Shown: in pieces, positions 8,045 to 59,425 of the stretch
Layout: the number at the start of each line of letters is the position of its first letter
Position numbering within the stretch: the stretch's first letter is position 1
From: an uncultured Gemmatimonadales bacterium
GTDB lineage: Bacteria > Gemmatimonadota > Gemmatimonadetes > Gemmatimonadales > GWC2-71-9
DNA: 64,000 nt
Direction: 5' to 3'
Assembly: GCA_963821525.1 (NCBI GenBank)
Contig: CAWGED010000019.1
Location: forward strand, 416,001 to 480,000
Notes under the pieces: generated by a model
Seen by the model: only the letters and a program-made list of their open reading frames with translations
Databases searched by the model: none
What the model was told of the DNA's origin: nothing
Translations under genes and position numbers: made by a program

Positions 8045-8079
8045 AGCCGTCAGCCGTCAGCCCTTAGCTGTTAGCTGTT
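8045..8079. repeat. Heptamer tandem array AGCYNTY x5 (single arm)
   Basis: AGCCGTC AGCCGTC AGCCCTT AGCTGTT AGCTGTT immediately after the mmsA TGA. Confidence 0.7.
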
Positions 8080-8154
8080 GCAGCTTAATGCTTCAATCTG
8101 CAATCGCATTGCGACGCTCGATGACAGACCACCAGCGCTCCCACCCGCCCTGTC

Positions 8155-9487
8155 ATGCCGCCGCACGACCACAAGCCGCACCCCTACACCGGACCGTCCC
8201 GGCAAGAGGTGCTCGCGATGCGGCAGCAGTACTGCAATCCCGCGATCTTCACGCTCTATCAGGATCCGCTGATGATCGTCGAGGGGCACATGCAGTACCT
8301 CTACGACGAGACCGGGCGCCGTTATCTCGACCTGTTCGCCGGTATCGTGACCGTCTCCTGCGGGCACAGTCACCCGAAGGTCGTGGCCCGGATGAAGGAG
8401 CAGCTGGATCTCATCACCCACACCACGACCATCTATCTCCATCCCAACTTCCCGGCGATGGCCAAGAAGCTCGCCTCGAAGATGCCGCAGGGACTGGACG
8501 TCACCTACTTCACCAACAGCGGGAGCGAGGCGAACGACCTCGCCATGCTGATCGCCCGGCTGTACACCGGGAGCAACGACATCATCGCGGTGCGGAACAG
8601 CTACCACGGCAATTCACCGACTGCCATGGCGGCCACGTCCCATCACACCTGGAAGTATCCGGCCCAGCTCAACAGCGGGATCCATCACGCGATCTCCCCC
8701 GATCCCTATCGCAGCCCATTCTCAGGCACACCGGAACAGGTAGCGTCGCAGGCGGCGGACGACATCCGGCAGCTGATCCGCTATTCGACTCCGGGCCGGG
8801 TGGCCGGCTTCATCGCCGAGCCGATCCAGGGCGTAGGGGGAGCCACCCACGGAGCTTCGAATTATCTGAAGGAAGCGTACGCGGTGATCCGGGAGAACGG
8901 CGGACTCTGCATCGCCGATGAGGTGCAGACTGGCTTCGGCCGCACCGGCGATCACTACTGGGGATTTCAGAATTTCGGGGTGGTGCCCGACATCGTCACG
9001 ATGGCCAAGGGAATCGGCAACGGGGCGCCGCTCGCCGCCGTCACCACCCGGCGCGACATCGCGAGCGTCCTCACCCAACGGGTCCACTTCAACACCTTCG
9101 GCGGCAACCCCGTTTCGATGGCGGCGGGCCTCGCGGTGCTCGACACAATCGACGAAGACGGACTGCAGGAGAACTCGAAGGTGGTAGGTGGGCCGCTTCA
9201 AGCAGGGGCTCAAGGAGCTGCAGACCCGCCATCGCCTGATCGGCGACGTCCGCGGTATGGGGCTCATGCTCGGCGCGGAGCTGGTCCGGGACCGCGGGAC
9301 GAAAGAACCGGCCAAGGAAGAGACCTTGCAGATCCTGGAGATCGCCCGGGAGCACGGCGTGTTGCTCGGCAAGGGCGGCCTGGACGGCAACGTGCTCCGG
9401 ATCAAGCCGCCCATGTGTCTCACGGCGCAGGATGTGGACTTTGCCCTCGAAGTCCTGGACGTGGCGCTGGGTCGGGTGGAGAAGTAG
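8155..9487 (+). CDS. Class III aminotransferase, alanine-glyoxylate aminotransferase 2 / beta-alanine-pyruvate-like (frameshift near 9190; start may be slightly upstream)
   Basis: [79 protein letters not shown]. Confidence 0.88.
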
Positions 9488-9654
9488 ACGGGAGACGGGA
9501 GACAGGAGACGGGAACAGCGTGAGAAGTGAGAAGTGAGAAGGAACAATCCGATGGTACGACAAGCAAATCACCCTCCGTGGACCCGAGTCCACGGAGGGT
9601 GAAATCGTTATGATCGGAGTTCCCTCTCACTTCTCACTTCTTACTTCTCACGCT
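9486..9654. repeat. Inverted heptamer-array cassette with internal perfect hairpin
   Basis: AGACRGG x4, then AGC+GTGAGAA x3 ... TTCTCAC-type x4+GCT; 15-bp stem 9569-9583/9588-9602. Confidence 0.9.
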
Positions 9655-9662
9655 TTTTGGGG

Positions 9663-11045
9663 TTAGCTGCTGAACCCAATCCCCATCCGTTCCAGGAGCC
9701 GAAGAAGCAGACCGGGCGGCTCACCGGCATCCACTCTCCGCAATCCCCTGGTCACCGCGTTCACCGCCCAGGATCGCATCGGTTCTGGGGGATAGGGGAA
9801 CGGTTTCTTCCTCACGAGCGAGAGGTCCAGCAGTTCACTGGGACGATCCAGCGCCAAGTGCGCGAGAATCCGTCCGGCCAGCCGGGTGGTTCCCAGTCCG
9901 TGCCCGGTATATCCCAGTCCGTAGTGCACCCGGCCCCCGACGGCCGATCCGAAGAAGGGCGTCATCCGCGTCGTGGAGCAGATCGGACCGCCCCAGGCGT
10001 ACTCCCACTCCAGGCCGCCCAGCGCGGGAAAGTGGCGCTTCCAGCTATCGGTAAGAGACTGGTAGTGCCGAGCCGAGTGATCGCAGGACGCGGAGACCTC
10101 ATTGCCGCGGTAGTAGGTCGCCTCGCTGGTCCCCCACAGCACCCTGCCATCCGCCGTCGGGCGATAGTAGTTGAAGAAGGTCCTGCCATCGGTGATTCCC
10201 TGCCGCCGTTTCCAGCCGAGAGTTTCCCACTGCGAAGCCGTAAGCGGGACGCTCACCAGGACGTAATCGTAGAGCGGGATGAACCGGCGAGTGAGCTTCG
10301 GCAGCAGCTGGTGGGTGTACGCGCTGGTAGCAAGCACGGCCCTCCGCGCTCGCAGCGTACCGTTCGCCGTTTTTACCACGATGCCGGAGCCATTCCGGTG
10401 GAACGATCGCACCGGACTCTTCTCGTAGACCCGGACGCCGAGCCGTTCGGCCTCCTGGCGCAGCGCGTCTACCAGTTTGACCGGATCGAGAATCCCTCCG
10501 CCGCTGACCGCGACTCCGCCCTGATACAACGGTGAGTGGAGCTCGGCCTGGGCCTCCTCGCGATCGAGAGAGCGGAAGCTGGTAACCCCCAATCGAACGG
10601 CGCTCTCGACATTCTTCCGACCTTCCTCGACTTGCGCCGGCGTCAGCGCCATCACGATCCGCCCGGTCGGCTCGAAGTCGCAGTTCAGTCTCCGCGAATG
10701 CAGGAACTCGATCAGCTCCGCGACGTTCGACTCGCCAAGCCGGGCCAAAACAGCAGCCTCGCGGGCCCCGAAATGGGCGACCGCGAGGCCGTGGGAATGG
10801 TCAACCGTCTCCGACAGCATGCCGGCGTTACGGCCGCTCGCGCCGTAGGCCACCAGCTCCTGTTCCAGCACGACTACCCGAGCGGACGGATCGAGCTCAC
10901 ACAGAAAGAGGGCGGTCCACAATCCAGTGAGACCGCCCCCAACGACAACAACCGTCGCCTCTTCTACGCCTTCCTGAACCGTGACCTTCGAGGCCTTTCT
11001 TTGAGCAAGCCAGAAACAGGCCTGCTCAACAGGCCGCTCAAGCAA
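9663..11045 (-). CDS. FAD-dependent oxidoreductase, PuuB/DAO family (gamma-glutamylputrescine oxidase-like)
   Basis: VVGGGLTGLW, GASGRNAG, YAWGGP, GYTGHGLG. Confidence 0.85.
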   Translation of the reverse strand: MLERPVEQACFWLAQRKASKVTVQEGVEEATVVVVGGGLTGLWTALFLCELDPSARVVVLEQELVAYGASGRNAGMLSETVDHSHGLAVAHFGAREAAVLARLGESNVAELIEFLHSRRLNCDFEPTGRIVMALTPAQVEEGRKNVESAVRLGVTSFRSLDREEAQAELHSPLYQGGVAVSGGGILDPVKLVDALRQEAERLGVRVYEKSPVRSFHRNGSGIVVKTANGTLRARRAVLATSAYTHQLLPKLTRRFIPLYDYVLVSVPLTASQWETLGWKRRQGITDGRTFFNYYRPTADGRVLWGTSEATYYRGNEVSASCDHSARHYQSLTDSWKRHFPALGGLEWEYAWGGPICSTTRMTPFFGSAVGGRVHYGLGYTGHGLGTTRLAGRILAHLALDRPSELLDLSLVRKKPFPYPPEPMRSWAVNAVTRGLRRVDAGEPPGLLLRLLERMGIGFSS

Positions 11046-11097
11046 CGCTGCTATCGTCCGATCGTCCTGCCTTGTGCTGCCGCTCAGGCCAGCCCCC

Positions 11098-11685
11098 TCA
11101 TTGTTCCTCCGCTTGCACGATCATGATGTGGGCCCAAGGCTCACCTGCCCCCATGATCCAGGGCTTTCCTTTCTCGGGCTTGATCGGCAGACCGGTCGTC
11201 TCCTCGGTGGCGTAGGGGATGTAGACCACCTGAAGTCCCTCCGGCGATTTGGCAATGCCGGTACTGGCATCGATGCTGTCGGCGGGCGCATAGAGATTGT
11301 AGAGTGCGCGCGGCCCGTCCGGCATCTTGAGCGTGCCCGCCTTGATTGCCGCGCGCCGAGCCTCCTTGATCTCCTGAGACGTCTTGCCTTGCGCCTCGAG
11401 CTCGCGCCCCATAGCCATGAAGGGCTCGAGATCCCTGTGATAACAGGCGACATGCCACGAGGCCGCCGAGGGATCATCGGCTAGACAAACCATCTCTCCA
11501 CTGCCCTGTCGCAGCACGGTCATCCGGTGATAGTTGCTGTAGCCCAGGACCGTTGCGTCCTTGCGCATTTCTTCGGGGGCTGCCGTGACAGCGGCCGCAA
11601 TCTGTTGCTCGGCCGAGGGGACCTGTGCCGCCAGGTTGGTCGCAGCGGCGAGGGCGATACAGCCGGCCAGGGGAAGGGCTCTCAT
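11098..11685 (-). CDS. Hypothetical secreted protein
   Basis: Signal peptide MRALPLAGCIALAAATNLAAQ; motifs CLADDP, VACYH, PWIMGAGEPWAHIMI. Confidence 0.7.
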   Translation of the reverse strand: MRALPLAGCIALAAATNLAAQVPSAEQQIAAAVTAAPEEMRKDATVLGYSNYHRMTVLRQGSGEMVCLADDPSAASWHVACYHRDLEPFMAMGRELEAQGKTSQEIKEARRAAIKAGTLKMPDGPRALYNLYAPADSIDASTGIAKSPEGLQVVYIPYATEETTGLPIKPEKGKPWIMGAGEPWAHIMIVQAEEQ

Positions 11686-11692
11686 AGTCGTC

Positions 11693-12173: not shown

Positions 12174-12336
12174 GGACAACTTCTCCTGGAGCATACGGGG
12201 TGACAAGGCGTCGGAGGGGCCGGGGTGGCTCACCAGCCCTCCGCAGGACATTATACTGGCTGTGGCACCGGCTCGCCTGACCCCCTCCGGCACCCGGCTT
12301 GCAGCGTCGGCGCCGCCACCCCGAACCGAGGCTTCA

Positions 12337-13407: not shown

Positions 13408-13490
13408 TGGCCGACACAGAATCCCCAAGCCGAGCGTGGTAATGTAGGCGCTATCGGCTTGGTCAAGTATCCGTCCATTGGTGGTGGGGC

Positions 13491-30241: not shown

Positions 30242-32105
30242 TTAGGATGCGTCAGCCGCCCGCGCCGCCGCCCGGGCTGCCCGCTTGCGGTCAGTCGCCG
30301 CGAGCGCCCGCTTGCGCAGGCGAATGCTCTTCGGCGTGACTTCAATGAGCTCATCTTCCTCGATGTACTCCAGGGCATACTCGAGCGTGATCTGCCGCGG
30401 CGGCTCGAGCTGGACGTTATCATCCGATGCCGTGGTGCGCATGTTGGTGAGCTTCTTTTCCTTGGTCACATTGACGTCCATGTCACCAGGCCGGGAATTC
30501 TCCCCGGCGACCATCCCTTCATACACCTCGTCTCCCGGGGTAACGAACATCTGGGCCCGCTCCTGCAGGTTCCCCAGGGCGAAGGCTACGACACTGCCCA
30601 CCCGGTCGGCCACCAGTACCCCGTTCTTCCTGCCGGCCAGCGGGCCGGCCCAGGGGCCGTAGTCCAGGAACCGGTGATGCATCACGCCGGTTCCCCGGGT
30701 GTCCGTCAGGAACTCCGACCGGTAGCCAAACAGGCCGCGGGCGGGGATCCGGAAGGTCATACGGACCATGCCCTGCCCCGGGTTCTTCATCTCCAGCAAC
30801 TCCGACCGGCGAGGGCCCAGCTTCTCAATGACGGTGCCGATGTACTCCTCAGGCACATCGATCATCAGCTCCTCGTAAGGCTCCAGCCGTTCTCCCCCTT
30901 CGCCGATCCGGGTGATGACCCGCGGGCGGGAGACCTGGAACTCGTAGCCCTCGCGCCGCATCGTCTCCATCAGGATGCCCAGATGGAGCTCTCCGCGGCC
31001 CGCGACCGCCCAGGTATCGGGACTGTCAGTGTCCTGTACCTTGAGCGCGACGTTTCGTTCCAGTTCGCGGAACAGCCGGTCCCGCACCTGGCGGCTGGTG
31101 ACGAACTTCCCTTCGCGGCCGGCGAACGGGCTGTTGTTGATGATGAAGTCGACCGAGATGGTCGGCTCCTCGACCGCGATGCCTTCGAGCCGCTCCGGGG
31201 TGTCCACCGCTGTGATAGTCTTCCCGATCTCGATTCCCTCGAGGCCGGAAAGCACCACGATGTCTCCCGCCGCCGCCTCCTCCACCTCGACTTTATGCAG
31301 CCCGTCGAAGGTGAAGAGCTTGGTGATCCGGCTGTGCTCGATGATTTCCTCGCTCACCATGCCCGGGTACGCCCAGGGGGAGCAGGGCCACCTGGTCTCC
31401 CACCTTCACCCGGCCCCGCTCGATCCTGCCGATCGCCATCCGGCCCAGGAAGGTCGAGAAATCGAGGGTGGAGACCAGCATCTGGAATGGGAGATCCGAG
31501 TTCCCGCTGGGAGCGGGCACGTGGTCGAGGATGGACTGGAAGAGCGGCTTGAGATCGGTGCCGGGGTGATCGAGCTCCGCGGTCGCGGTGCCGGCCCGGC
31601 TCGAGGTATAGAGGAAAGGCGCGTCCAGCTGCTCGTGGGTCGCTTCCAGATCGATGAACAGCCCGAGCACCTCATCGTGCACCCGGAGCGGTTCGGCGTC
31701 GGCCCGATCGATCTTGTTGATCGCCACGATCGGACGGAGGCCCAGACTGAGCGCCTTCCGGGTGACGAACCGGGTCTGCGGCATCGGCCCTTCGGCGGCA
31801 TCCACCAGGATCAGCACCCCATCCACCATGCGGAGAATCCGCTCCACCTCACCACCGAAATCGGCGTGGCCGGGGGTATCCACGATGTTGATCTTGGTCC
31901 CGCCCCAGTGCACCGCGGTGTTCTTGGCCAGAATGGTGATGCCCCGCTCCCGTTCCAGCGGGTTCGAGTCCATCACCCGTTCTTCGACCTGCTGATTGGC
32001 CCGGAAAGCGCCGGCCTGTCGCAGCATCTGATCCACCAGGGTGGTCTTCCCGTGGTCCACGTGCGCGATGATCGCGAGATTCCGGATGTTGGCGTTCGTG
32101 GACAT
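30242..32105 (-). CDS. typA: Translational GTPase TypA/BipA (frameshift near 31370)
   Basis: [56 protein letters not shown]. Confidence 0.95.
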
Positions 32106-32190: not shown

Positions 32191-32226
32191 AAGGCGGTCA
32201 GGGCGGGCGGGACGGACGGGGCGGAC
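32191..32226. repeat. Left 9-mer array (RRGRCGGNC x4) flanking four-helix-bundle gene
   Basis: AAGGCGGTC AGGGCGGGC GGGACGGAC GGGGCGGAC. Confidence 0.7.
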
Positions 32227-32296
32227 GCGTCAGGATGTAGCCTGATCGCGTCGGTCTGGTTTGGTGTTGGCAGTTCCTCGGTTCTACGTTGAACGG

Positions 32297-32734
32297 ATGC
32301 AGCCTTATGAGGGGATAAAGGCGTGGCAGGCATCCCACGCACTTGCCTTGGCGGTATTTCGAGCAACCCATTCCTGGCCGAGGAGCGAGCTCTACGGGAT
32401 AACCGCACAGCTCAAACGAGCGGCGATTTCCGCCCCGACCAACATCGTCGAAGGTCGTGCCCGCCTGGGAAGCCGGGAGTTTCGTCGCTTCGTTGGGATC
32501 AGCTTGGGGAGCTTGGCGAGGCTAGGATACACTGCTTCGATTCGCCTACGAACTGAAGATACTCGAGGAGAAAGACTGGAAACGTCTGGAGAGCTCAACG
32601 GGAGAGCTGCGAGCAAGCTGACATGGCTGCTGTTGAAATCTCTCAACCGAACCGCCGCCACGCCGTCCGTCGTCCGCCTTCCCGCCTTGACCGCCCTGTC
32701 CGCCTCCCCACATCTCTCCCTCACCTCCAGCTGA
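32297..32734 (+). CDS. Four helix bundle protein (23S rRNA IVP / Avd-like family); probable compensating frameshifts in 3' half, true stop uncertain
   Basis: IKAWQASHALALAVFRATHSWPRSELYGITAQLKRAAISAPTNIVEG..R...EFRRFVGISLGSL family signature. Confidence 0.88.
   Translation: MQPYEGIKAWQASHALALAVFRATHSWPRSELYGITAQLKRAAISAPTNIVEGRARLGSREFRRFVGISLGSLARLGYTASIRLRTEDTRGERLETSGELNGRAASKLTWLLLKSLNRTAATPSVVRLPALTALSASPHLSLTSS
32672..32706. repeat. Right inverted 9-mer array flanking four-helix-bundle gene
   Basis: GTCCGCCTT CCCGCCTT GACCGCCCT GTCCGCCTC, reverse complement matches the left-array consensus. Confidence 0.7.
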
Positions 32735-33598
32735 ACCGTCACATGCCCTATTCCCAGATCACCCATCGCCTCTCGAATCCCGCTCAAGACATCGGGATGA
32801 TCGGCGAGCTCGGGCACCACCGCGTGTCCGCTCATGGCCACCATGCCGCTCGTGACCGTCCACACGTGGAGGTCGTGGACCGCGGAGACGCCGGGGACCG
32901 CCAGCATGCGGCGCTGGACTTCCGGCATCGAGACGTGGCCCGGAACCGCTTCGAGCAGGATGTCGGTGCTCTCGCGGACCAGCCGCCAGGCCCCGCCCAA
33001 AATCAGTACCGCAATGAGCACGGAGATGATCGGGTCAGCCAGCGTCCAGCCGGTCGTCAGCAGGATGATCGCGGCTATCAAGGCGCCCACCGAGCCCAGC
33101 AGGTCTCCCAGAATGTGGAGGTAGGCGCCTCGGGTATTGAGATGATGCTCTCTGTCGCGGTGCAGCAGGCTGAGACCGACGGCATTCACCAGGAGGCCAG
33201 CGGCCGCCACTGCCAGGAACAATCCTCCCTGAATCGGGGCCGGGTTCCTCACCCGGTGAATTGCTTCCAGCAACGATCAGTCCCGCGATCACGAAGAGGA
33301 GCGCCCCATTGACCAGCGCCGCCAGGATTTCGAGCCGCAGGTAGCCGTAGGTCTTGGTGTCGTTCGGGGGACGCCGCGCCATGCGGGCGGTGAAGAGGGT
33401 AAGGCCCAGCGCCCCGACGTCAGTCAGCATGTGTCCGGCATCGGCCAGCAGGGCCAGGGAACCGCTCAGCCATCCGCCAACCGCCTCGACCACCATGAAG
33501 CCGCCGGTGAGCAACAGGACGGTCCATAGCCGGTCGATCGGGGGCCGGATTGCGAGGTTTTCGGCCTGCAGGTGGGAGCAGTCGGTGCGTGGGGCCAT
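32700..33598 (-). CDS. czcD: Cation diffusion facilitator (Zn/Co/Cd efflux); frameshift near 33270, 3' end uncertain
   Basis: SLALLADAGHMLTD, TYGYLRLEILAALVNG, HILGDLLGS, VHDLHVW, HVTVQLE. Confidence 0.88.
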
Positions 33599-33639
33599 GG
33601 GATGAAAGTTAGTCGGAATCGGCAAGCTTCGTTGTCGGA

Positions 33640-33762
33640 GGTTAGACGGATAGACGGTTAGACGGTTCGACGGTTCGAACGCGAGAATCTGAATCCCTCT
33701 GAGGTTGTCCAAGCGTCCCGACGCACCGTCCACGAACCGACGAACCGTCTAACCGTCTAACC
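33640..33762. repeat. Inverted octamer-array cassette (GGTTMGAC)
   Basis: Five GGTTAGAC/GGTTCGAC-type units at 33640-33679; four inverted units (GTCTAACC type) at 33731-33762 containing the hisD stop. Confidence 0.9.
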
Positions 33763-35048
33763 CTGCCCCTGCCCTTCCACCCTGATCCTCACCGCCTCAG
33801 CATGCCCGAACAATCCCTCCGCCCGCGCCAGCGCCATGATCCGGGCCGCATCGTCGTGGAGGCGGTTCCTGGTATAGTAGATCATGCTGGTCCGCTTCAC
33901 GAAGTCGTACACGCCAAGCGGGGACGCATACCGTGCGGTCCCTCCCGTGGGCAGAACGTGACTCGGCCCGGCGAGATAATCCCCGACTGGTTCAGGCGTA
34001 TCCTCTCCCATGAAAATCGCCCCGGCGTGCCGCACACCCTGCGCGATTCCCTCCGCGTCGCGGGCGATGATCTGCACGTGCTCGGCCGCGCGCAGATTCG
34101 CCACCTCGATCGCGTCACGCATCGAAGGGACCCAGATCACCAATCCATGCCGGCGCAAGGACTCGCCCGCAATCTGGGCTCGGCGGGTTTCGAGCCAGAC
34201 AGGCTTCGAGCGCGGCCGGCAGATTTGTCCGCCAGCTGGTGATCGGTGGTCACACACCAGGCCGTCGCCTCCTCATCATGCTCCGCCTGCGCCACCATAT
34301 CTGCCGCGACCTGAGCGACATTGGCAGTGGAGTCCGCGATGATGAGCACTTCGGTGGGCCCCGCCATCATGTCCACGCCGACCAGTCCGGTGATTTGACG
34401 CTTGGCCTCGGTCACCCACTTGTTTCCCGGTCCAACGACCTTGTCTACTCGCGGAATCGTGCGAGTTCCGAACGCGAGCGCCGCGATCGCCTGAGCGCCC
34501 CCGATGCGGAAGAGCCGTGTCACTCCGGCCAGAGAGCAGGCCGCCAGCACGGCATCGGTGATGCCTCCAGGAGGCGTCACGGCGATGATCTCTTCGACTC
34601 CAGCGACCGATGCTGGCACCACGTTCATGATGACGGTGGAGGGATACGCCGCCTTCCCCCCGGGCACGTAGACCCCAACCCGATCCAGCGGATTGACCCG
34701 CATGCCGAGCAGGCTGCCATCTTCCTGCAGCAGGGTAAAGCCGATGTCGCGCTGCTTCTTGTGAAAGGCTCCTACCCGCTCGACCGCCGTTTCCAGCGCC
34801 TCCCGTAACTCGAGATCGATCCGGTCCAGCGCGTTGTCCCATTCCTCGCGGGGAATTTCCCAGCTGGACGGCTCGAGATCGGTTCCGTCGAGTTTCGAGA
34901 TCCATTGCCGGACACCGGCATCTCCCCGCTCGGCGACGTCGGCCAGGATCCGCCGCACCTGCTCCCGGGTCTCCCCGTCAACCTCTGATGGTTTCGGGAG
35001 ATACGGCGTGAGGCTGTCGAGCGGCGGAACCGCGATTTGACGAATCAT
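33757..35048 (-). CDS. hisD: Histidinol dehydrogenase (frameshifts near 34200-34260)
   Basis: GVYVPGGKAAYPSTV, GGAQAIAALAFGT, GPGNKWV, AGPTEV, QAEHD, GDYLAGPSHVLPTGG. Confidence 0.93.
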
Positions 35049-35093
35049 CTGCCTCCCTCGCGAGTGGGAGAATTCGGCGCTAGTCTTCCCGCT

Positions 35094-36416
35094 ATGGAAA
35101 CGTCGTGGAGTACGACACTGACCGGCCTTGCCGCGGTCGTCATTCTGGTTGCCCTCAATGCGTTCTTCGTGGCCGCCGAGTTCGCGCTGGTAGGCTCGCG
35201 CAAGACCAAGCTTGAGGAAATGATCCAGGCTGGCGATCAACGGGCGGCATTGGCGCAACGCGTCAAAACATCGCTGAACCGCTACATCTCCGCTACCCAA
35301 TTGGGGATCACTCTCACCTCGCTCGGCTTGGGCTGGGTGGGCGAACCGGCGCTCGCTGGACTCATCAGTCGTGCCATGACCTGGCTTCCCGATCGAGCCC
35401 AGATTGTCGCTACCCACGCCGTAGCCGCGACCATCGCGTTCATCCTGATCTCGATGCTGCACATCGTGCTTGGTGAGCTGGTGCCCAAGGCGTTCGCACT
35501 GCTCTATCCCGAAAAGGTCGCTCGGTGGACCACGCCTCCGCTGATGGCCTTCAATTGGACCATGGCGGTTCCCATCAGGCTCCTGAATGGGATGTCGAAC
35601 CGGTTGCTCAAGCTGATGCACATTGTGCGGCCCCTGGAGCACGAGCGGCTCCATTCCCCCGACGAAATCCGGATCCTGGTCGAGCAGAGCCAGGAGGGAG
35701 GGTCGCTCGGCAAGGAAGACGCACGACTCCTCGAGGGCGTCTTCGAGTTCAGCGAGAAGACCGCCCAGGAAGTCATGACGCCCCGCACCCAGATGATCGG
35801 GCTGGAGCGGGAGCTGACGGTGGAGCAGGCGGCGGACGAGGTGGCCCAGGCCAAGCGGTCGCGCTATCCGGTCTATGCCGAGTCGCTGGACGACATCGTG
35901 GGCGTCGTCCACGCGAAGGATATTCTCACCGCCGTCCGTCAGGCCCCCGGCACGACGGTCGCGAGCATCATGCGGGCGCCGTTGTTCGTGCCGGGCACCC
36001 GGGAGGTCGAGGACGTCCTGGCCGACATGAAGCGCCTCAAGGTCCACCTCGCCATCGTGCTCGATGAGTACGGCGGGACGGCGGGTCTCGTCACGATGGA
36101 AGACCTGCTGGAGGAGATCGTCGGGGACATCTACGACGAATACGATCGCCAGGAGCGGAAACCTTCGCCCGCCGAGGGAGCCCCGTTGCTGTCCGGATCG
36201 TTGCCGCTCAGCGAGTTCAACGCCGAGTACGATCGAGAGCTCGACGACACCGAATACACCACCCTCGGCGGCTACCTCTTCGGCCAGCTGGGGCGGCTGC
36301 CCCGCGCGGGAGACCGGATGTCGGTGGGAGACGATGTCTTCGAGATCGTCGAGATGGAGGGTCGCCGGGTCAAGACCGTGAGGTATCTGCGCGGCGCTGG
36401 AGCGACCACGACGTGA
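35094..36416 (+). CDS. HlyC/CorC family (CNNM + CBS + CorC) transporter
   Basis: NAFFVAAEFALV, TQLGIT, GELVPK, VMTPR, SRYPV, DEYGGTAGLVTMEDLLEEIVG. Confidence 0.92.
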   Translation: METSWSTTLTGLAAVVILVALNAFFVAAEFALVGSRKTKLEEMIQAGDQRAALAQRVKTSLNRYISATQLGITLTSLGLGWVGEPALAGLISRAMTWLPDRAQIVATHAVAATIAFILISMLHIVLGELVPKAFALLYPEKVARWTTPPLMAFNWTMAVPIRLLNGMSNRLLKLMHIVRPLEHERLHSPDEIRILVEQSQEGGSLGKEDARLLEGVFEFSEKTAQEVMTPRTQMIGLERELTVEQAADEVAQAKRSRYPVYAESLDDIVGVVHAKDILTAVRQAPGTTVASIMRAPLFVPGTREVEDVLADMKRLKVHLAIVLDEYGGTAGLVTMEDLLEEIVGDIYDEYDRQERKPSPAEGAPLLSGSLPLSEFNAEYDRELDDTEYTTLGGYLFGQLGRLPRAGDRMSVGDDVFEIVEMEGRRVKTVRYLRGAGATTT

Positions 36417-37379
36417 CCCAGGCGCCGATTCCCCCCGGCGCCCTGGATCGAAGCGGTCCCGCCGCAGCCAGCCGTCGCCGTCTTCAGCGCGCGGCCCTCG
36501 AGATCTTCGGAGCGGCTGGCTACGAAGAGCTCGATTCCACCCGTCTTCGAATACGAGGATGTCTTTCTCCGTGCCGGCGGACCCGAGGTCGGCGAGCGGC
36601 TCATCCGGTTCATCGATCGCGACGGCCGCGTGCTGGCGTTGCGCTATGACTTCACCGCGAGCATCGCGCGCGTTGCCGCGACCACGTTCGCCCAGGCGTC
36701 GAATCCTCTGCGGCTCTGCTACGCGGGCGGGGTATTTCGCCAGGAGCCGGAACGCGGCAACCGTCCGAGGGAAACGCTTCAGGCTGGTGCCGAGTTGCTT
36801 GGTGAGAGCGGCCTCGATGCCGACATCGAGATCGTCCGGCTGACCCTGGAGTTGGCGCGAAGTGCGGGCCTCAAGGAATTCCAGCTCAATCTGGGTCACG
36901 CCGAGGTGCTCTCCGGCGGGCTCGCCGCCATTGCTCCGGATCAGCGCACTGCCATCCGGCACTGGATCGATCGGAAGGACCGCGGCAACCTCACCCGCGC
37001 ACTGGACCGCGCGACACCCGAGGCTCGCGCCCTCCTCAGTCTCCCCTTCGTGATCGGACGGCGGGCCGCGCTTGAGGCAGCCTTGCGTAGCGCGCCTCAG
37101 ACTGCGCGTCCTGGTCTCGAGTCACTTCTCGCCCTCGACGCGAGACTCTCCCACGAGGACCGCAGGCACGTCGTGTACGACTTGGGAGAGGTCCGCGGAC
37201 TCGACTACTACACCGGGATCCACTTCGAATTGTTCATCGCCGGCACCGGAAGGGCCGCGGGCGCCGGGGGCCGCTATGACGATCTGATGGGGCGGTTCGG
37301 CCGGGCGCGGCCGGCGGTCGGCGTCTCGCTCGATCTCGACACTATCGCCGAGGCCATCGCGGCCGCCGGGGCAACGTGA
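36413..37379 (+). CDS. hisZ: ATP phosphoribosyltransferase regulatory subunit (frameshift near 36535)
   Basis: LALRYDFTASIAR, QAGAELLG, RGLDYYTG, GGRYDDLM; directly upstream of short hisG. Confidence 0.88.
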
Positions 37380-38936: not shown

Positions 38937-38949
38937 TGCAAGGAAGTAA

Positions 38950-39194
38950 AGCGGGAACAGGGAACAGGGAACAGGGAACAGGGGACGGTGAACGGGGGGA
39001 CGCCAACGAAGTAGAACCACCTCATCCGAGAGCTCGCCCCGAGCGCAGCGAGGGGAGCGAAGCGAGGAGGGATCTAGCTTCCTGACCACGGAGTCTGGGA
39101 TAGGATACCAGATCCCTCGCTTCCGCTCGGGATGAGGTGGTCCGACTCGCTCATCTCCGCTCCCGTTCCCTGTTCCCTCTTCCCTGTTCCCGCT
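38950..39194. repeat. Inverted heptamer-array cassette (GGGAACA) enclosing a second palindromic element
   Basis: AGC+GGGAACA x4 plus 2 degenerate units ... TGTTCCC-type x4-5+GCT; inner IRs 39016-39027/39130-39141 and 39067-39075/39110-39118. Confidence 0.9.
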
Positions 39195-39201: not shown

Positions 39202-40657
39202 CTACAGTCGCATATCGACGTACGTCGATCGCCGGAGCTTGTCGATGTAGTGGCGCACCGCCAGCTCGTCGCCCAGCCGCTTTCGGATCGCGTCGCGCAC
39301 ATCCTCGTACCGGATGGTGCCGGCAGGGCGGCGCCTGGTCACCTGAAGAACCGCATACTTCTGCCGCAGACCCTGCTGCTTCTGCAGGGAGAAGACCGGG
39401 ACCACCACGCTCGAATCCGACTCGCCGATGCCGTCCTTGTATTCGTCCGGCAGCTGATTCACCGGCACGTCGTCCGCCGCCTTTTCTTCGGAGGGATCGT
39501 GGTAGAGTCGTTGGAGCGAGTCGAACGCCCCACCATTTTTCAGTTCTGCCCGGATCTGTTCGGCGAGTGCCTTGGCGCTGTCGGCATTCTCCTGGGTGAT
39601 CTCCGGCATGATCAGGATGTGACGGGCTTGCACTTCGGCCGGCTGAACCCGCTGGACCTGGATGATGTGAAACCCAAAGGGTGTCTCGACCGGATCGGAG
39701 ATGGTCCCGGGTTTGAGCGAGAATGCCACCTGCTCGAACTCCGGGACCATGGTCCCCCGCCGGAACCAGTTCAGCTCGCCCCCCTGCTCCTTCGAGGCCG
39801 GGTCCATGGAGAAACGCTTGGCCGCGGTGCCGAAGTCGGCGCCGTGCCGCAGTTCGCGAGCGATCGAGTCCGCGGTCGCGTGCGCTCGCTCGCGAGCCTC
39901 CGGTGAAGGCTTGGGTGCGACGACGATATTGCGGAAGGAGACCGTAGCCGGCCGCTCGCCCAGCTGGCCCTTCTGCGCATCGAAATAGTCTCGCATCTCG
40001 CGCTCGGTGGGCTGAACCGCCTTGATCTTGCCGTCGCTCTTCATCTTGTCGATCAGCCGGTTCTGGAGCGCGGCGCGACGCTGCTGGTCGGTCAGCCAGC
40101 GGCGATACTCCTCGGGAGTCTGGAAGCCGGCCTTCTTCAGCTCGTTGCGGTAATCGACCTCCGAGGTGAACTTCCCGCGGATGTTCTTGATCTGCTCCTC
40201 GACACCGTCGGACACTTCCTGATCGGTCACCTTGATCGCGGTATCCCGGGTCGCCTGCTGGACCAGCACCTCGACATCCACGATTCGGGAGAGTGCCGCG
40301 CGACACATGCTGAGAAGCTCCTGCGGATTGCTCGGCGCCGGAGCTCCCTGGGCCCGTTGGGAATAAATCTCTTCCTCCAGCTGAGACGACATCACCGGCG
40401 CATCGCCCACGACCGCGATTACCCGGTCAACCGCGTTAGTGGTGTCGCAGCGGGCGATCGGCTGATTGTCCCCGGCGTTCACGCTGTCCTGCGGGGTCAG
40501 GCCGTTCGGCGCCCGGACGCTGTCCCGAGGAGAAGGTGTCCTGACCGATCAAGCTGTCTGTCGTGCTCACGCTGTCCTGAGCGGACATCGGTCCGGCGCC
40601 CGCGGAGACCGCGAGCGCGAACAGACAGAGACCCTTCAACCACCGGCGAGTACTCAA
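39202..40657 (-). CDS. surA: SurA-like parvulin peptidyl-prolyl isomerase/chaperone (frameshifted 5' region)
   Basis: VDRVIAVVG, FSMDPASKEQGGEL, MVPEFEQVAFSL, VETPFGFHII, ARHILI; adjacent to pdxA. Confidence 0.82.
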
Positions 40658-48410: not shown

Positions 48411-49724
48411 ATGTACGGCCAGCTGGCGCTCGTGGTTGCGACGTTGATCGCCCCGACCACCGGCACGCCTAACCCGGCTCTGTCCCTGCTGGGGCGCCAT
48501 CTCGCGACGTACGATCGCCCCAGAGTCAACGTCTGGCTCAACCAGCAAGATCCTTATCGTACGGGCGAGCCTGCCCGGGTCTTTTTCAAGACCAACATCG
48601 ACGCCTACATCACCGTTCTTCGAGTGGATACCGATGGCAAGGTCCGCGTGCTGTTCCCGGTCGAGCCGTGGGAGGACAACTACACGCGCGGGGGCCGCAC
48701 CTTCGAAGTCCTTGGCCGTTCGCAGGACGAAGCCTTTCGAGTAGATGATCCGGCTGGAGTCGGTTACGTGTTTGCCGTCACTGGTCCCGATCCCTTCGAC
48801 TACGATGAAATCACCCGGGGTGATCACTGGGACTACCGCGCCATCTCCGATGGCCAGGTTCGGGGAGACCCGTACGTCGCCCTGACCGACCTCGCCGCGC
48901 GCATTGCGGGGCCCAACGACTACGACTACGACATCGCGGAGTACTACGTCGAGCAGCACTACGACTATCCGCGCTTCGTCTGCTACGACTGCCACGGTTA
49001 CGTCAGCTACAACTATTGGGATCCGTACGATTCGTTCTGCTCCCGATTCCGCATCGTGGTTTACGATGACCCCTACTACTACCCGTACCGGTACTACGGC
49101 GGACGAGTGACCGTCGTGCATCCTTACCGTCCGGAGCCGAGGTACGTCTTCAAGGATTACAACCCGAGCGACGACTACATCACTCGCGTCGCGACCCGTC
49201 CTCGAGGCGAGCCGAACCGGCCCGGCGATGCCGACCGATCGAGCGCCGATGTCGGCGGCCGCGGCCGGGTTCCTGCGCCGATCGCTCCCCGCCCGCGTGA
49301 TGGCGACAGACCTGATGCAGGTGATCGGGACGGTCGTCCAACTCGCGACAGAACCGGCATTGAATCACCGCGCCGCGTGAGCCCCGACGATCAACCGTCC
49401 CGGGAGGAGGCTCCAGACCAGCCGCGACGTCGGGCACCGACCCCCACTCCGGACCAGCCCCGGCGAACGGGTGAGGAACGTGAGCCCTTCCCCGAGAGCC
49501 GAACCGCGTCGCGCAGCTCCAGCCCCCTCTACAGCTATTGAGAAGCCTCGCTCCAAGGAAGCAAAACCGCGGCAGGAAGCGCCGCGCACGGAGCCGCAGA
49601 AGCAGCCCGCCGAGATAGTGACAAGGACAAGGACAAGGACAAGGACAAGGATGCGGCCCGCAGCAAACCCACACCACCGAAGAGCACCGGGGAGCCCGAG
49701 TTGCGTCGCCGGAAGCCCTCCTGA
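48411..49724 (+). CDS. DUF4384-like exported protein with Tyr-rich region and Pro/Arg/Asp-Lys disordered tail (two frameshifts in tail)
   Basis: YRTGEPARVFF, DAYITVLRVDTDGKVRVLFP; tail re-read as DKDKDKDKDK...GEPELRRRKPS*. Confidence 0.72.
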
Positions 49725-51389: not shown

Positions 51390-51764
51390 ATGTCGGAGAC
51401 AACGGGCAGCCTGAAGGACTTCAACGCCTTCCGGACCAGGATGAACGAAACCATCCTGGCCGGAGGCAACCTCACCATCGGCCGGTTCTTCGCGCTCGAT
51501 CATCGGGCGTACGAGCCCGGCGCCCTCGGCACAAAAACGAAGGAAATGCTGGGCCTCGTGTCCTCGCTGGTCCTCCGGTGCGACGACTGTATCACCTACC
51601 ACATCATTCGCTGCGCCGAGGAAGGTGTCACCGACGAGGAGTTCCATGACGTCTTCGCGGTCGGACTGGTGGTGGGCGGCAGCATCGTCATTCCGCACCT
51701 GAGGCGCGCGGTGGCGAGGCTGGAAGAGGTTCGGGCTGGAAGTGAAGTGGGAGACAGGGAGTAG
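51390..51764 (+). CDS. Carboxymuconolactone decarboxylase/AhpD-like protein
   Basis: KEMLGLVSSLVLRCDDCITYH, VVGGSIVIPH. Confidence 0.88.
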   Translation: MSETTGSLKDFNAFRTRMNETILAGGNLTIGRFFALDHRAYEPGALGTKTKEMLGLVSSLVLRCDDCITYHIIRCAEEGVTDEEFHDVFAVGLVVGGSIVIPHLRRAVARLEEVRAGSEVGDRE

Positions 51765-51838
51765 TGAGTAGGTGGTAGGGATTAGGGATCGATGAGTCGC
51801 AAGTCACGCCCTATTCCCTACTCCCTACTCCTCACTTC
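51744..51838. repeat. Inverted heptamer-array cassette (GGGAGTA family)
   Basis: GGGAGTA GTGAGTA GGTGGTA GGGATTA ... CCCTATT CCCTACT CCCTACT CCTCACT. Confidence 0.85.
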
Positions 51839-51880
51839 GATCTCCCCGCTTCGGTCGCGTCCCGGACTATATTCCCCGCC

Positions 51881-53678
<1,798 letters not shown>

Positions 53679-53680
<2 letters not shown>

Positions 53681-53766
53681 TTCCGAGTTCCGAGTGCCAT
53701 CTCCGCAAGGGTCGTACGCCGCACCCCGGTAGGAGCTCGGAACTCGGAACTCGGAACTCGGAACTC
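53679..53766. repeat. Inverted heptamer-array cassette (AGTTCCG / CGGAACT)
   Basis: AGTTCCG x2 + AGTGCCA ... CTCGGAA x4. Confidence 0.88.
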
Positions 53767-54751: not shown

Positions 54752-54818
54752 AGAGATTCACCTTGTCTCTCTATCATTCTTTCTTCTCGATCGTTCGTCC
54801 CCCGTTCCCGGTCATCGC

Positions 54819-55805: not shown

Positions 55806-55821
55806 CGGAAACTGCCTAAGC

Positions 55822-56784
55822 ATGCCGAAGCTCGGCGTTCTCGGCTCCCTGGTCTGGGATGTCATCTACGGACGCGACCCCGCCGCGCCACCGGTCGAGG
55901 AATGGGGCGGGATCGCGTATGCCCTGGCCGGCTTCGATGCGGCGCTTCCCGACGACTGGGAAATCGTTCCTTTGATAAAGGTAGGGAGCGACCTCCGCGA
56001 TCGCGCCGCCGATCTGATCCGCTCCCTGACTCACGTGGCGCCCGGAGCCCGATGCATCGAGGTGCCGGTGCCCAACAACCGCGTGGTCTTGCGCTACCAA
56101 TCGGCCGAGCGGCGTTGCGAGCGGATGTCGGGGGGAGTTCCCGGTTGGACCTGGGGCGAGCTGGGCCCGATGGTCCGCGACCTCGACGCTCTCTACGTCA
56201 ATTTCATCTCCGGATTCGAGATGGAGTTGGGCACCGCGCAGGCGCTGCGTCAGGCTTACCGTCGTCCGATTTACGGGGACTTGCACAGCCTCTTCCTCGG
56301 CATGCCTCAGGACGGCATCCGGGTACTCAAACCCCTGAGCGATCCGCTGGAGTGGCTTCGGTGCTTCGACGTGGTGCAGGTGAACGAGGATGAGATGCGC
56401 CAGCTCTGGCCCGATCCAATGGCGCTCGCCGCGGGCGCCATCGAGGCGGGAGTCTCCTTGCTGCTGGTAACCCTCGGTCCCCGGGGCTCCGTCTATGTTG
56501 CCGCTCCGGGATTCGACGGCTGGGCAACTCATTCGATCTCATCGACCGCCGTCCGCACCGAGCTGATCCCGGCCCCGTCGGTCGACTCGCTGGACCCGAC
56601 GGGCTGCGGCGACGTCTTCGGGGCCGCGATGATGAGCCGCCTCCTGGCGGGTGATGGCCCCCAGTCCGCAACCCGCGAGGCGACCCGCCTGGCAGCGCGG
56701 AATGCGATGCTCCGTGGAGCCAGCGACCTGGCGCGGCTGCTGCGCGGAAGGTTGGCCACTGCTTCCGCCACGAGCTCGGTATGA
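55822..56784 (+). CDS. PfkB family carbohydrate kinase
   Basis: VNEDE, VTLGPRG, DPTGCGDVFGA. Confidence 0.82.
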   Translation: MPKLGVLGSLVWDVIYGRDPAAPPVEEWGGIAYALAGFDAALPDDWEIVPLIKVGSDLRDRAADLIRSLTHVAPGARCIEVPVPNNRVVLRYQSAERRCERMSGGVPGWTWGELGPMVRDLDALYVNFISGFEMELGTAQALRQAYRRPIYGDLHSLFLGMPQDGIRVLKPLSDPLEWLRCFDVVQVNEDEMRQLWPDPMALAAGAIEAGVSLLLVTLGPRGSVYVAAPGFDGWATHSISSTAVRTELIPAPSVDSLDPTGCGDVFGAAMMSRLLAGDGPQSATREATRLAARNAMLRGASDLARLLRGRLATASATSSV

Positions 56785-57689
56785 GCCGAGTCGTCGAAAT
56801 CCCTGCATTCTTCGATGACAAGGGCTTCGAGCAATTCGCCCACTCCTTTTCCGCCGGACCGATCACCGACCGGATGCTGTTCGACGCCCGCGGGGCGCAG
56901 TGGGCGTCACCTTACGGTCTGATTGGCATGCTGACAGCAGGACAGGCCGTCAAGGAGGCAGGAGGTCCGCCCCCCGCGTTCGCGGTGCCCGAAGCCGACG
57001 AGGTCCGGCGCTACTGGGTGCGAGCGGGATTCTTCGGTCCGGCTGCCGAGTTGTTCGAGCTCCACGGCAAGGTGCCGAAAGTCAAGGTCGAAGAAATATC
57101 GGATGTGCTGCTCAGTGTGACGGCAGTGCGGGCCATGGAGGACGTGCATGGCGTGGTCGGCAGGATTCAGGAAGGGGCGGCGCGGATTCTGACCAACGAG
57201 CTTGGCCTCGAGCCGGCCGCGACCGCAAGGTTCGGCATGGCGCTTTCGGAGGCTTGTCAGAATATTGTGGAGCACTCCGGTACGAGCGGATGGGTAGCGG
57301 TCCACGCCTATACCTTCCGTCGAAGGCTCGGCGGCAGGAGAGTGGTCGTTATTGCGGTGGGAGATGCGGGAGTCGGCTTTCGCCGCTCGCTCGAAGCCAC
57401 TCAGGCTCGCCGGTTCGGCGACCGCTGGGGCGACGCCGCGGCGCTCGAGGCCGCAGTGATCCAGGAAGTCAGCCGATTTCGAGATCCTGGCCGTGGCCAG
57501 GGACTCCCGGGCATCAAGCGCTACCTCCTGCGCTGGCAGGGCAAGTTGTCCATCCGGAGCGGCACGGCGCGAATCGCCATCGTGCCGCCCTGGGATGAGG
57601 ATGTCCCAATGACCGAATCGCTGCCGCCATTTCCGGGCGCGCAGCTCCAGATCGTGATCCCCGCGAAGGAAGGTGCTCCAACCACATGA
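56781..57689 (+). CDS. STAS-like + HATPase_c (anti-sigma-kinase-like) protein
   Basis: N-box SEACQNIVEHS, VGDAGVG, GRGQGL, LSIRSG; no H-box. Confidence 0.75.
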   Translation: MSRVVEIPAFFDDKGFEQFAHSFSAGPITDRMLFDARGAQWASPYGLIGMLTAGQAVKEAGGPPPAFAVPEADEVRRYWVRAGFFGPAAELFELHGKVPKVKVEEISDVLLSVTAVRAMEDVHGVVGRIQEGAARILTNELGLEPAATARFGMALSEACQNIVEHSGTSGWVAVHAYTFRRRLGGRRVVVIAVGDAGVGFRRSLEATQARRFGDRWGDAAALEAAVIQEVSRFRDPGRGQGLPGIKRYLLRWQGKLSIRSGTARIAIVPPWDEDVPMTESLPPFPGAQLQIVIPAKEGAPTT

Positions 57690-58222
57690 TGCATACCATC
57701 CGGGTGGACCGCGTGCTGCGGGAAACGGTCAACACTTCCTATTCCGATCTCGTTACCCGGGCCACCGGTCGTGCGGTGCGCAGCAGTATCCGGCAGACTA
57801 TCGCCGGACTCGAGGGCGGCACCGCTCTCCTCGACTTTTCTTCGGTGGGGCTGGTGGACTTCAGCTGCGCCGATGAAGTCGTCGCCCAGCTGCTGCTCGA
57901 AAAGACTGACGATGTCATCGTCGTACTGGGCGGGCTGCGCGAGGATCACACTGAAACCATCGAGCATGTCCTGACGCACCACGCGCTGGCGGTGGTCGTG
58001 CAGGAATCACCCGACGGTTGTCCCCGTTTGCTGGGCCTGGTGGACCGTGAAGCCCAGGAAGTCTTCGAACGACTTCACGCGCACGGAGCCGCGGATGCCG
58101 AGACGATGGGACAGCACATGGGCTGGGATGCGGAGCGGGCTCAGGACGCGCTCGACACTCTGGTCCGGCTCCGGCTCGTCCGGCAGGAAGGACTCACGTT
58201 CGCTCCGCTTCCGCTCCCGTGA
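57686..58222 (+). CDS. STAS-like (DUF4325-like) protein with C-terminal winged HTH
   Basis: LVTRATGRAVR, LLDFSSVGLVDFSCADEV; C-terminal AQDALDTLVRLRLVRQ. Confidence 0.65.
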   Translation: MMHTIRVDRVLRETVNTSYSDLVTRATGRAVRSSIRQTIAGLEGGTALLDFSSVGLVDFSCADEVVAQLLLEKTDDVIVVLGGLREDHTETIEHVLTHHALAVVVQESPDGCPRLLGLVDREAQEVFERLHAHGAADAETMGQHMGWDAERAQDALDTLVRLRLVRQEGLTFAPLPLP

Positions 58223-59367
58223 AACGCCGCTACGGCCTGTCTACGCTGGCCATTCACGGCGACCCGCATCGCCGCCCTGACTGGACTCCTGTCGTTCCGC
58301 CTGTGATGCAGAGCAGCACCTTCACCAATCCCGTCGGTTCGGCGGAGGAGGTGATGTACTCGCGCTATGGGAACAATCCCAATCAGGTGGCGCTGGGGAA
58401 GAAGTACGCCCTGCTCGAAGGCACCGAGGCCGCCGTCTTCGTGTCGAGCGGCATGGCCGCGACCGCATTGGCGCACCTCGCGGTACTGCGCCCGGGAGAC
58501 CATCTGGTCACCAGCTCCTGGATCTACGGCGGGACCAAGCGGCTGTTCGACGAGGAATTCGGGCGCCTCGGCATCGACGTCACCTACGTGAACCCCGACC
58601 AGCCCCGCCTGTGGCGGCGGTCGGTGCGCAAGTCCACCCGCGCCATTTTCGTCGAGACGCCGACCAATCCGCTGATGCGGGTGCTCGATCTCACGCCGGT
58701 CGCTCAGATCGCCAGGGACTCGGGGCTGGCCTTACTGGTGGACGGCACCTTCGCCAGTCCGGTCAATTTCCGGCCCCTGGAGCATGGCGCGGACATCGTC
58801 ATTACCAGCGCCACCAAATACCTCAACGGGCACAGCGATGTGATCGCCGGCGCGGTCGCCGGTTCGGCGTCGCTCATTGAAGAGGTGATCAGGCTGATGA
58901 CGCTGTGGGGCCAGGCCATCGATCCCCACACTGCGTGGCTGATCGATCGCGGGATCCGCACGCTCGAAGTCCGGATGGCCCGTCACAACGAGAACGGCAT
59001 GGCGGTGGCGCAATGGGCCAGCCAGCATCCCGCCATCGTCCGGGTGCACTATCCCGGATTGCCCTCCCATCCGGAGCACGAACAGGCAAAGGAAGTGCTG
59101 AACGGGTTCGGAGGCATGGTAGGGCTCGAGATCAAGGGCGGCGTCCGCGCGACCGAGAAAATGCTGCGGAAGCTCAAGGTGATCACCCACGCACCGAGTC
59201 TCGCCGGTGTCGAAAGCCTGGTCTCCGAGCCGCGACTCACATCCCACAGCCGGCTCAGCGACGAGCAGCGGGCCAAGCTGGGCATTCCGGACGGATTCGT
59301 GCGGCTCTCCTGCGGGTTGGAGAATGCTCCGGACATCATCGCCGACCTGGAGCAGGCGCTGGGCTAG
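58219..59367 (+). CDS. Cys/Met metabolism PLP enzyme (cystathionine/methionine gamma-lyase family)
   Basis: YSRYGNNP, SSGMAA, ETPTNP, SATKYLNGHSD, SLAGVESL, RLSCGLE. Confidence 0.92.
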   Translation: MKRRYGLSTLAIHGDPHRRPDWTPVVPPVMQSSTFTNPVGSAEEVMYSRYGNNPNQVALGKKYALLEGTEAAVFVSSGMAATALAHLAVLRPGDHLVTSSWIYGGTKRLFDEEFGRLGIDVTYVNPDQPRLWRRSVRKSTRAIFVETPTNPLMRVLDLTPVAQIARDSGLALLVDGTFASPVNFRPLEHGADIVITSATKYLNGHSDVIAGAVAGSASLIEEVIRLMTLWGQAIDPHTAWLIDRGIRTLEVRMARHNENGMAVAQWASQHPAIVRVHYPGLPSHPEHEQAKEVLNGFGGMVGLEIKGGVRATEKMLRKLKVITHAPSLAGVESLVSEPRLTSHSRLSDEQRAKLGIPDGFVRLSCGLENAPDIIADLEQALG

Positions 59368-59425
59368 GTGGTAGGGAGTAGGTAGTAGGGAGTAGGGCCC
59401 CACTCCCCACCACCTACTCCCTACC
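59365..59425. repeat. Inverted heptamer-array cassette (TAGGGAG family)
   Basis: TAGGTGG TAGGGAG TAGGTAG TAGGGAG TAGGG / CCCCACT CCCCACC ACCTACT CCCTACC. Confidence 0.85.

Follow-up and report, generated by a model that had tools for sequence, protein, structure and literature searches.

The stretch analysed here, referred to as the window, is a 64,000-nucleotide segment of an uncultured Gemmatimonadales bacterium (assembly GCA_963821525.1, here G000; positions 416,001 to 480,000 of contig CAWGED010000019.1, or C19:416001-480000). It contains eight loci at which a short unit is repeated in tandem. An initial annotation described these loci as cassettes in which an array is followed, after a spacer, by its reverse-complement array, with some copies loaded with a four-helix-bundle gene and others empty or degenerate. 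All eight loci were recovered in place, and all adjoined protein genes, not rRNA. The features identified are given below in window coordinates, with a dot where no strand applies.

8045..8079, +: two 7-mer arrays in the same direction (AGCCGTC, then TTAGCTG), left-type and unpaired, beginning directly 3' of the aldehyde dehydrogenase stop TGA (8042-8044); from array search and folding
8091..8107, +: short right-type arm remnant of another family (GATTGCA/GATTGAA type), read from the sequence
9486..9514, +: AGACGGG arm, an orphan, that overlaps the stop TAG (9485-9487) of the aminotransferase
9520..9651, dot: empty GTGAGAA cassette between convergent genes, arms 9520-9541 and 9625-9651
32192..32227, +: left arm, of 9-mer units (GGCGGNCRG type, CGG core), belonging to the loaded cassette
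32297..32734, +: four-helix-bundle gene (TIGR02436/PF05635) of the CGG-unit clade, its frame extending into the right arm
32663..32704, +: right arm of the loaded cassette
33640..33762, dot: empty 8-mer cassette GGTTMGAC, arms 33640-33678 and 33732-33762
38949..39191, dot: GGGAACA cassette, arms 38949-38998 and 39161-39191
39018..39137, dot: nested palindrome of a second family, of the type flanking small GIY-YIG genes in G000
51746..51842, dot: empty GGGAGTA cassette before lepA
53679..53766, dot: empty AGTTCCG cassette, its first unit overlapping the lepA stop TAG (53678-53680)
59365..59425, dot: empty GGGAGTA cassette with almost no loop, beginning at the Cys/Met lyase stop TAG (59365-59367)

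An array and a complementary partner array, together folding into a long hairpin, made up seven of the eight loci, as had been predicted. The z-scores were -13.6 (9520/9625), -4.3 (32193/32682), -6.9 (33640/33732), -10.6 (38953/39161), -5.5 (51746/51809), -6.5 (53679/53732) and -4.1 (59365/59403). Coordinates and folding also confirmed that the locus at 8045 is partnerless, with two arrays in one direction, no partner arm and no hairpin (z 0.18). The same junction in two relatives of the genus, G003 and G004, likewise had no matching right arm. The locus at 9486 was a composite of the orphan AGACGGG arm, whose partner is kept in G004, followed by a complete GTGAGAA cassette with a perfect 15-bp hairpin in its loop. 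A stop codon overlapped or lay inside an arm at 9486, 33640, 51744, 53679 and 59365. At 33640 this was the hisD stop TAG (33757-33759, minus strand), and at 51746 the stop TAG of the upstream gene (51762-51764) fell inside the left arm. The GGGAACA cassette sat 10 nt past a surA-like stop (39202-39204, minus strand). The initial annotation had set these loci apart from CRISPR and from classic repetitive extragenic palindromes (REP). Both distinctions stood, as there were no unique spacers between units and the arms were tandem 7-10-mers, not short palindromes.

Inverted array pairs were counted across the G000 assembly (4.33 Mb, 64% GC, 81% complete). Pairs less than 700 nt apart numbered 305, while permuting array identity three times gave 16, 25 and 30, and contig C19 carried 49 cassettes as compared to 0 after hexamer shuffling. 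Arrays of this kind did not arise as often in shuffled sequence, in line with the earlier expectation. One-to-one pairing gave 279 cassettes under 1500 nt and 270 under 700 nt, the latter a slightly high count because some cassettes sit on apparently duplicated contigs. The period was 7 in 226 of the 279, 8 in 33, 9 in 12, 10 in 6 and other in 2, and arms mostly held 3-5 units with a mode of 4. Of 861 strong 7/8-mer arrays 413 belonged to such a pair, the others being orphan, composite or nested arms. Family polarity was fixed, with the arms ordered one way in 201 cassettes and the reverse in 4. We found 84 distinct repeat words, and the same word recurred at up to 21 sites. Loop sizes were bimodal, either below about 150 nt or 400-600 nt, and the mirroring between the two arms of a site (0.288) was no better than with arms of other sites in the family (0.313, n=180). 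Jointly, these results show the eight window loci to be part of a roughly 270-member family well above chance. The earlier statement that there is no single unit held in that units differ within the window, but each unit was a genome-wide family in its own right.

The family was concentrated at gene ends. By a crude purpose-made gene caller, 157 of 270 cassettes had an arm edge no more than 15 nt from a stop codon in the same direction, where random places gave 9 and the wrong orientation gave 1. Flanking genes could be classified on both sides in 160 of 268 cassettes, giving 109 tandem, 43 convergent and 8 divergent junctions, while convergent and divergent junctions were equally numerous in the G000 genome overall. 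In G004:C1, cassettes were also seen directly 3' of tRNA ends (277852 and 309767 in the joined 474-kb stretch).

Four-helix-bundle genes were the dominant cargo, as the initial annotation had proposed. All 13 TIGR02436 matches in G000 were enclosed by inverted arrays, whose unit changed from gene to gene in nearly every case, and in a set of 84 such genes 65 had paired arms, 12 had one arm and 7 had none. Some long "loops" in the pairing list were ordinary genes between two adjacent cassettes. The named relatives of the window cassette protein were nearly all from Gemmatimonadales. The window gene is frameshifted in this assembly, and G003 and G004 have it intact. Short-read contigs of public sequencing runs (runs were examined as contigs) lacked the extra bases at 32595 (4 runs) and 32607 (3 runs), supporting sequencing error as the probable source of the frameshifts. 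Many housekeeping genes in G000 are also interrupted by frameshifts, a pattern typical of long-read error, and because of this disrupted frames are a weak sign of decay here. The ratio of nonsynonymous to synonymous substitution (dN/dS) was 0.07 for the window gene between G003 and G004. Among same-site protein pairs it was 0.07-0.25 in 20 of 27, the remaining 7 being saturated. The cassette protein is under purifying selection.

Two further element types accompanied this family. GxxExxY genes (PF13366, PD-(D/E)xK) had inverted flanks scoring at least 14 in 21 of 24 loci, some of these near the shuffled maximum; their paired arrays had periods of 8-10, none of 7, and a core common to the arms. 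The GxxExxY nuclease cassettes with 8-10-nt arms are a parallel family, with examples in G000 at C5:948726, C4:251116 and C8:120644. Small GIY-YIG genes are bordered by a third type of palindrome, which also turns up nested in cassette loops, as at 39018-39137, where the palindrome was present in G003 and absent from G004. These palindromes lay within 80 nt of an array in 25 of 34 cases and were seen in G000 at C5:845162, C8:283051 and C12:227017, among other sites.

The claim that architecture rather than sequence is conserved had to be abandoned, as unit sequence and period were conserved by family and tracked the clade of the enclosed protein. On a quick tree of 84 proteins, clades shared unit cores: ATT (support 100), GTGAG/ACG (99), GT(A/T)C (96) and, for the 8/9-mer units, CGG (90). 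Where alleles at the same site differed in unit, their proteins were far more divergent. Two out-of-sample sets of 80 loci each were then scored. The metagenome loci fetched with the ATT-clade alignment (GC 0.30-0.66) gave 56 paired, 13 single and 11 without arrays; the paired units contained ATT in 48 of 56 and had period 7 in 40 of 56. From the genome loci fetched with the CGG-clade alignment, 5 that matched training rows exactly were removed; of the rest, 44 were paired, 12 single and 19 without arrays, and the paired units had ATT in 0/44, period 7 in 0/44 and CGG in 35/44. A viral search with the GTGAG-type clade returned no match. Protein identity correlated with unit similarity (Mantel rho 0.44, n=147). 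The correlation was 0.15 with one protein per site in Gemmatimonadales (p 0.005) and 0.17 within the ATT clade (p 0.001). Thus protein clade predicts unit core and period. Empty cassettes followed the same vocabulary. Of 233 with 7/8-mer units, 138 had a unit identical to a gene-linked unit of the genus (shuffled 7, reverse complement 2), and 194 were within one change of such a unit as compared to 69 for shuffled units, with the same polarity.

Alleles at orthologous junctions were compared with the genus mates G001 (98% complete), G002, G003 and G004 and with G011 (100% complete), and at the window junctions also with the family-level relatives G016, G019, G020 and G021. Every alignable genus mate had arrays at the window junctions, with different units at 33640 and 51744 and a different arrangement in G004 at 9486. 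G003 and G004 carried 7-mer cassettes with other units at the GGTTMGAC site, and G001 retained only one arm of the GGGAACA cassette. The 51746 junction had GTGAGAR units in G003 and GGAGTRA in G001, G002 and G004, while the AGTTCCG unit at 53679 was common to G001-G004. The cassette at 59365 was present in G001, G003 and G004. Arrays were absent from the 51746 junction in G016 and G019 and from the 59365 junction in G016, G019, G020 and G021. Loaded and empty copies, and presence/absence polymorphism at orthologous sites, had both been proposed earlier, and both were observed, with loaded, empty, replaced and absent alleles. We could place 37 of the 45 gene-bearing loci of G001-G004 and G011 in G000, where several were empty, differently filled or absent. 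The site at C5:548000 was loaded with AGTACCG arms in G001 and G002 and was an empty AGATTGA cassette in G000; the site at C5:1233058 was loaded in G011 and an overlapping stop-start in G000. A loaded G000 cassette at C5:407k was missing from G004, with a clean junction one base past a TGA and no duplication. At C7:55916 four genomes between them had alleles of three units, variously loaded, empty or remnant.

The comparison with G003 covered 1.27 Mb at 93% flank identity. Its 87 junctions had the same unit in 22, one change in 7, a different unit in 16, a single or degenerate array in 29, a much shorter array in 7 and no array in 6, the last two classes including some decayed remnants or misclassified cases. 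Loops bore no relation to each other in 11 of 14 junctions with a different unit as compared to 3 of 16 with the same unit, and therefore most unit changes were whole replacements. In present/absent pairs read by eye the cassette stood in place of about 10-70 nt around the stop and often brought a new stop codon; in all, new cassettes substituted 0 to about 70 nt. No target-site duplication was seen in these pairs or at C5:407k against G004, although the cases are few. Cassettes thus move or get exchanged as units, landing at gene ends. At G003:C1 ~127250 an empty cassette lay in frame within a Ser/Thr kinase gene, with 15 nt replaced by 78 nt. At C19:517343 a cassette and stop codon lay where the G003 frame seems continuous; either a split gene or a paralogue could account for this.

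Genomes were also searched for enzymes that might act with the cassettes. Among 41 related Gemmatimonadales genomes, 40 yielded no RNase III, a set that takes in 30 of the 31 of high quality (controls ringing in 8-9/14), and a motif search of the 81% complete G000 found none; the sole match was on contig C294 of G038. These Gemmatimonadales may process rRNA without RNase III, and its apparent absence may explain the tolerance of long hairpins in host mRNA. Reverse transcriptase was not found in G000, which is incomplete, or in G001, G011 or G022, and was found in 7 of the 41 genomes. Y1 transposase genes occur in most cassette-rich genus mates. The four in G000 (C12:49440, C12:7145, C1:35924 and C19:590173) have their own REP-like palindromes alongside, and paired arrays enclosed none of the four and none of 18 other Y1 loci, 5 of which have one array nearby. 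These searches gave no support to an obligatory resident partner, be it a reverse transcriptase, a Y1 transposase or RNase III. One 23S gene was found, of normal length (2962 nt as compared to a 2925-position model).

A structure model of the cassette protein matched Xcc0516 (2GSC) with a template modelling (TM) score of 0.96. It also matched BT_0352, and matched Avd with TM 0.77 for 4DWL and TM 0.77-0.80 over 4DWL and 8UB7, at 10-11% identity. Residues Q30, R33, S37, N41 and E67 of the cassette protein are invariant. Avd is a pentameric barrel that holds flipped-out RNA bases between protomers (10.1101/2023.10.23.563531). Structures of PF05635 proteins have been solved since 2006, and we know of no function for them.

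We propose that the cassettes are a selfish family, which is the best reading of these data. In this proposal about 270 turnover-prone cassettes mostly occupy gene ends, and the full-length ones enclose a PF05635 gene whose protein is likely ringed, likely binds the repeat and likely promotes insertion. We hold this proposal as a whole to be somewhat better than an even bet. The protein would likely assemble as a five-subunit ring, and ring binding to the repeats is suggested because of the likeness to pentameric Xcc0516 and Avd. As each repeat word tracks one protein lineage, the protein likely recognises its own repeat. It likely does so in single-stranded RNA or DNA, and the ring would take one unit per subunit. 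TRAP and Hfq are ring proteins that read tandem words in a comparable way. The protein would then promote insertion of cassettes bearing its repeat, and empty cassettes may be by-products made in trans or may be left by clean gene loss. Host end-joining or recombination is our guess for strand transfer because the searches linked none of RNase III, reverse transcriptase and a matching Y1 transposase to the cassettes.

Several observations weigh against this proposal. At C19:413270 and C19:483962 the loop was retained while both arms had switched to a related unit, so whole-cassette replacement fails to explain such sites. The link between clade and unit is in part what shared descent predicts, because gene and arms are inherited together. 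Within the CGG clade the Mantel correlation was not significant (rho 0.08, p 0.079), and the 44 paired loci of the CGG set formed 33 flank clusters, nearly all from Gemmatimonadota. Thirty-nine of the 233 empties had no close gene-linked unit in five genus genomes. In a hand tally of 151 genomes, using a search pattern that also catches other units, ATT arrays (at least 4 matches) were found in 11 of 13 genomes with an ATT-clade gene and also in 28 of 138 without a detected gene; within the family the figures were 11/13 and 21/49. Five genomes without a detected gene yielded no cassettes over 338 kb, as compared to 65-83 per Mb in G003/G004, a contrast confounded by lineage and drawn from one genus. 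The loops of 154 empty cassettes were homologous only among nested palindromes and in one duplicated-contig pair, and no gene remnants were found in the short loops. The earlier description of empty or degenerate copies was correct in that empties exist, but they are neither gene remnants nor copies of one another. To our knowledge the four-helix-bundle protein has no known catalytic site. The gene-end bias could also stem from selection instead of targeting.

Some of these points would suit passive microsatellites, in which slippage grows the arrays at gene ends, pairing is kept for RNA stability, homologous recombination between strains moves the alleles and the gene hitchhikes with its original arms. 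The loops of empty cassettes are unique, alleles at one site usually stay within one broad protein clade, certain unit changes are single steps (51744), and no tie to mobile elements was found in Rehm 2015 (PMC4692102). Slippage would nonetheless have to produce identical words of fixed polarity at up to 21 unrelated sites and gene-linked words in empties, and arms mirrored no better at their own site run contrary to a local fold-back origin. The in-frame insertion in the kinase gene and the clean absent alleles also speak against microsatellites, which we consider improbable. We see a domesticated host system as improbable to the same degree. Here gene-end hairpins would serve as terminators or stabilisers and the protein would be an RNA-binding regulator acting on them. 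The strong stop-codon and convergent-junction bias, the length and stability of the hairpins, the purifying selection on the protein and the failure to find hairpin-cutting RNase III in 40/41 genomes are all consistent with such a role. Fast loss and replacement at 93% flank identity are not, nor are gene copies that vary from 0 to 13 among relatives or host genes truncated or altered by insertions.

We consider it quite unlikely that the cassettes are REPIN-like elements in which the four-helix-bundle gene is a passenger and movement is supplied in trans by a Y1 (HUH, RAYT-like) transposase or the GxxExxY/GIY-YIG nucleases. The doublet hairpins and variable spacers resemble those described for REPINs in PMC3116915, and Y1 genes are present in G000 (four) and, in some number, in most cassette-rich genus mates. 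None of the 4 G000 Y1 genes or 18 other Y1 loci is enclosed by paired arrays, the nucleases possess their own arm types, and a single enzyme would have to handle 84 unit words. Marginally less credible again is an mRNA counterpart of the 23S intervening sequence (IVS), for which RNase III would do the excision and an RNA intermediate the re-insertion, with an Avd-like protein acting beside reverse transcriptase. The build does match the Coxiella IVS, where PMC4990558 describes heptamers before S23p and RNase III excision; the fold is shared with Avd and insertion is in the 3' parts of transcripts. RNase III was not found in 40/41 genomes (30/31 high-quality), therefore the excision step is removed for these hosts, and reverse transcriptase was found in 7/41 genomes and not in G000, G001, G011 or G022.

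Other routes were also rejected. G-quadruplexes fail as a general explanation, with GGG in only 61 of 270 units. Local fold-back copying of arm to arm is not borne out, as own arms are not better mirrored. Copy-and-paste of whole empties does not fit the unique loops, and gradual decay from loaded to empty does not fit short loops without gene fragments and a bimodal distribution of loop sizes.

In comparison to known systems, the closest element is the S23p-bearing 23S rRNA IVS (S23p/PF05635; Coxiella, Leptospira). According to Warrier 2016 (PMC4990558), it has the same protein family inside a terminal stem, with tandem heptamers of variable copy number before the open reading frame of an RNase III-excised IVS, and is patchy and horizontally acquired. 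Unlike these IVSs, the cassettes lie at the 3' ends of protein genes and tRNAs, not in rRNA, with hundreds of gene-less copies, a protein under purifying selection and hosts apparently without RNase III. Gene-less inverted heptamer pairs have been published, with no mechanism given, for Xanthomonas (GGGAATC; 70-75 inverted pairs per genome) and Nostoc (Rehm 2015, PMC4692102). Those repeats are alike in having about 4 tandem heptamers in convergent inverted pairs, near stops and scarce between divergent genes. There, one G-rich word is treated as a quadruplex motif and has no linked gene family, whereas here 84 words track the cargo clade. REPIN-RAYT systems (PMC3116915, PMC5581495, PMC6006769) share extragenic inverted doublets with variable spacers and the pairing of every repeat family with a low-copy gene flanked by that repeat. 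The arms here are instead built of non-palindromic words in tandem, no HUH transposase serves as the matching gene, and the Y1 genes go with other palindromes. The family follows REPIN-RAYT bookkeeping, yet is a member of neither REPIN-RAYT nor the S23p IVS. Avd of diversity-generating retroelements, whose likeness to PF05635 is recorded in PMC10053308, has the same four-helix-bundle fold, and its pentameric nucleic-acid-binding barrel is our functional model. In contrast to Avd, no reverse transcriptase, template or variable repeat adjoins these genes. Miniature inverted-repeat transposable elements differ in the target-site duplications, of which the few cases here had none, and in having near-identical interiors, unlike the 154 loops. 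Scattered PF05635 genes are described in cas operons and rRNA insertion sites in PMC3936711 and 10.1101/2024.02.27.582315. No description of the gene-plus-array system was found in the literature searched (subscription papers and supplements lay outside its scope).

Heptameric repeats abound in bacterial genomes and lack an explanation (Rehm 2015), and the clade-to-unit code connects them to the PF05635 proteins of no known function. If the protein does mobilise the cassette, this would be a mobile element of very small size, about 500 nt, inserting at stop codons and remodelling protein C-termini in hosts seemingly without RNase III. A bolder version is possible but doubtful. It would make the family a class of mobile elements without a transposase, integrase or reverse transcriptase of known type, in which a ring protein reads a clade-specific code and installs or rewrites gene-end arms. 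This class would then be the origin of bacterial heptameric repeats, with the 23S IVS as a special case and GxxExxY as a parallel family.

Other features of the assembly were also recorded. Near-identical stretches on separate G000 contigs (C9:1-800 and C4:415161; C12:74687 and C13:8387; C12:7145 and C1:35924) suggest redundant strain contigs. Within the window, partial or split frames of aldehyde dehydrogenase, typA, a CDF transporter, hisD and ftsE (6526-8044, 31293-32105, 32392-33733, 33757-36962 and 59455-60149) are probably long-read indel errors. An Rfam scan of the window gave a single match, a tRNA. A contig joint at 38972-39157 was set aside, with only 21 letters to one side of it. 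A GACAAG repeat of 5.3 copies occupied 49620-49651, and 50 nt across it (49596-49647) were skipped by contigs of two public runs.

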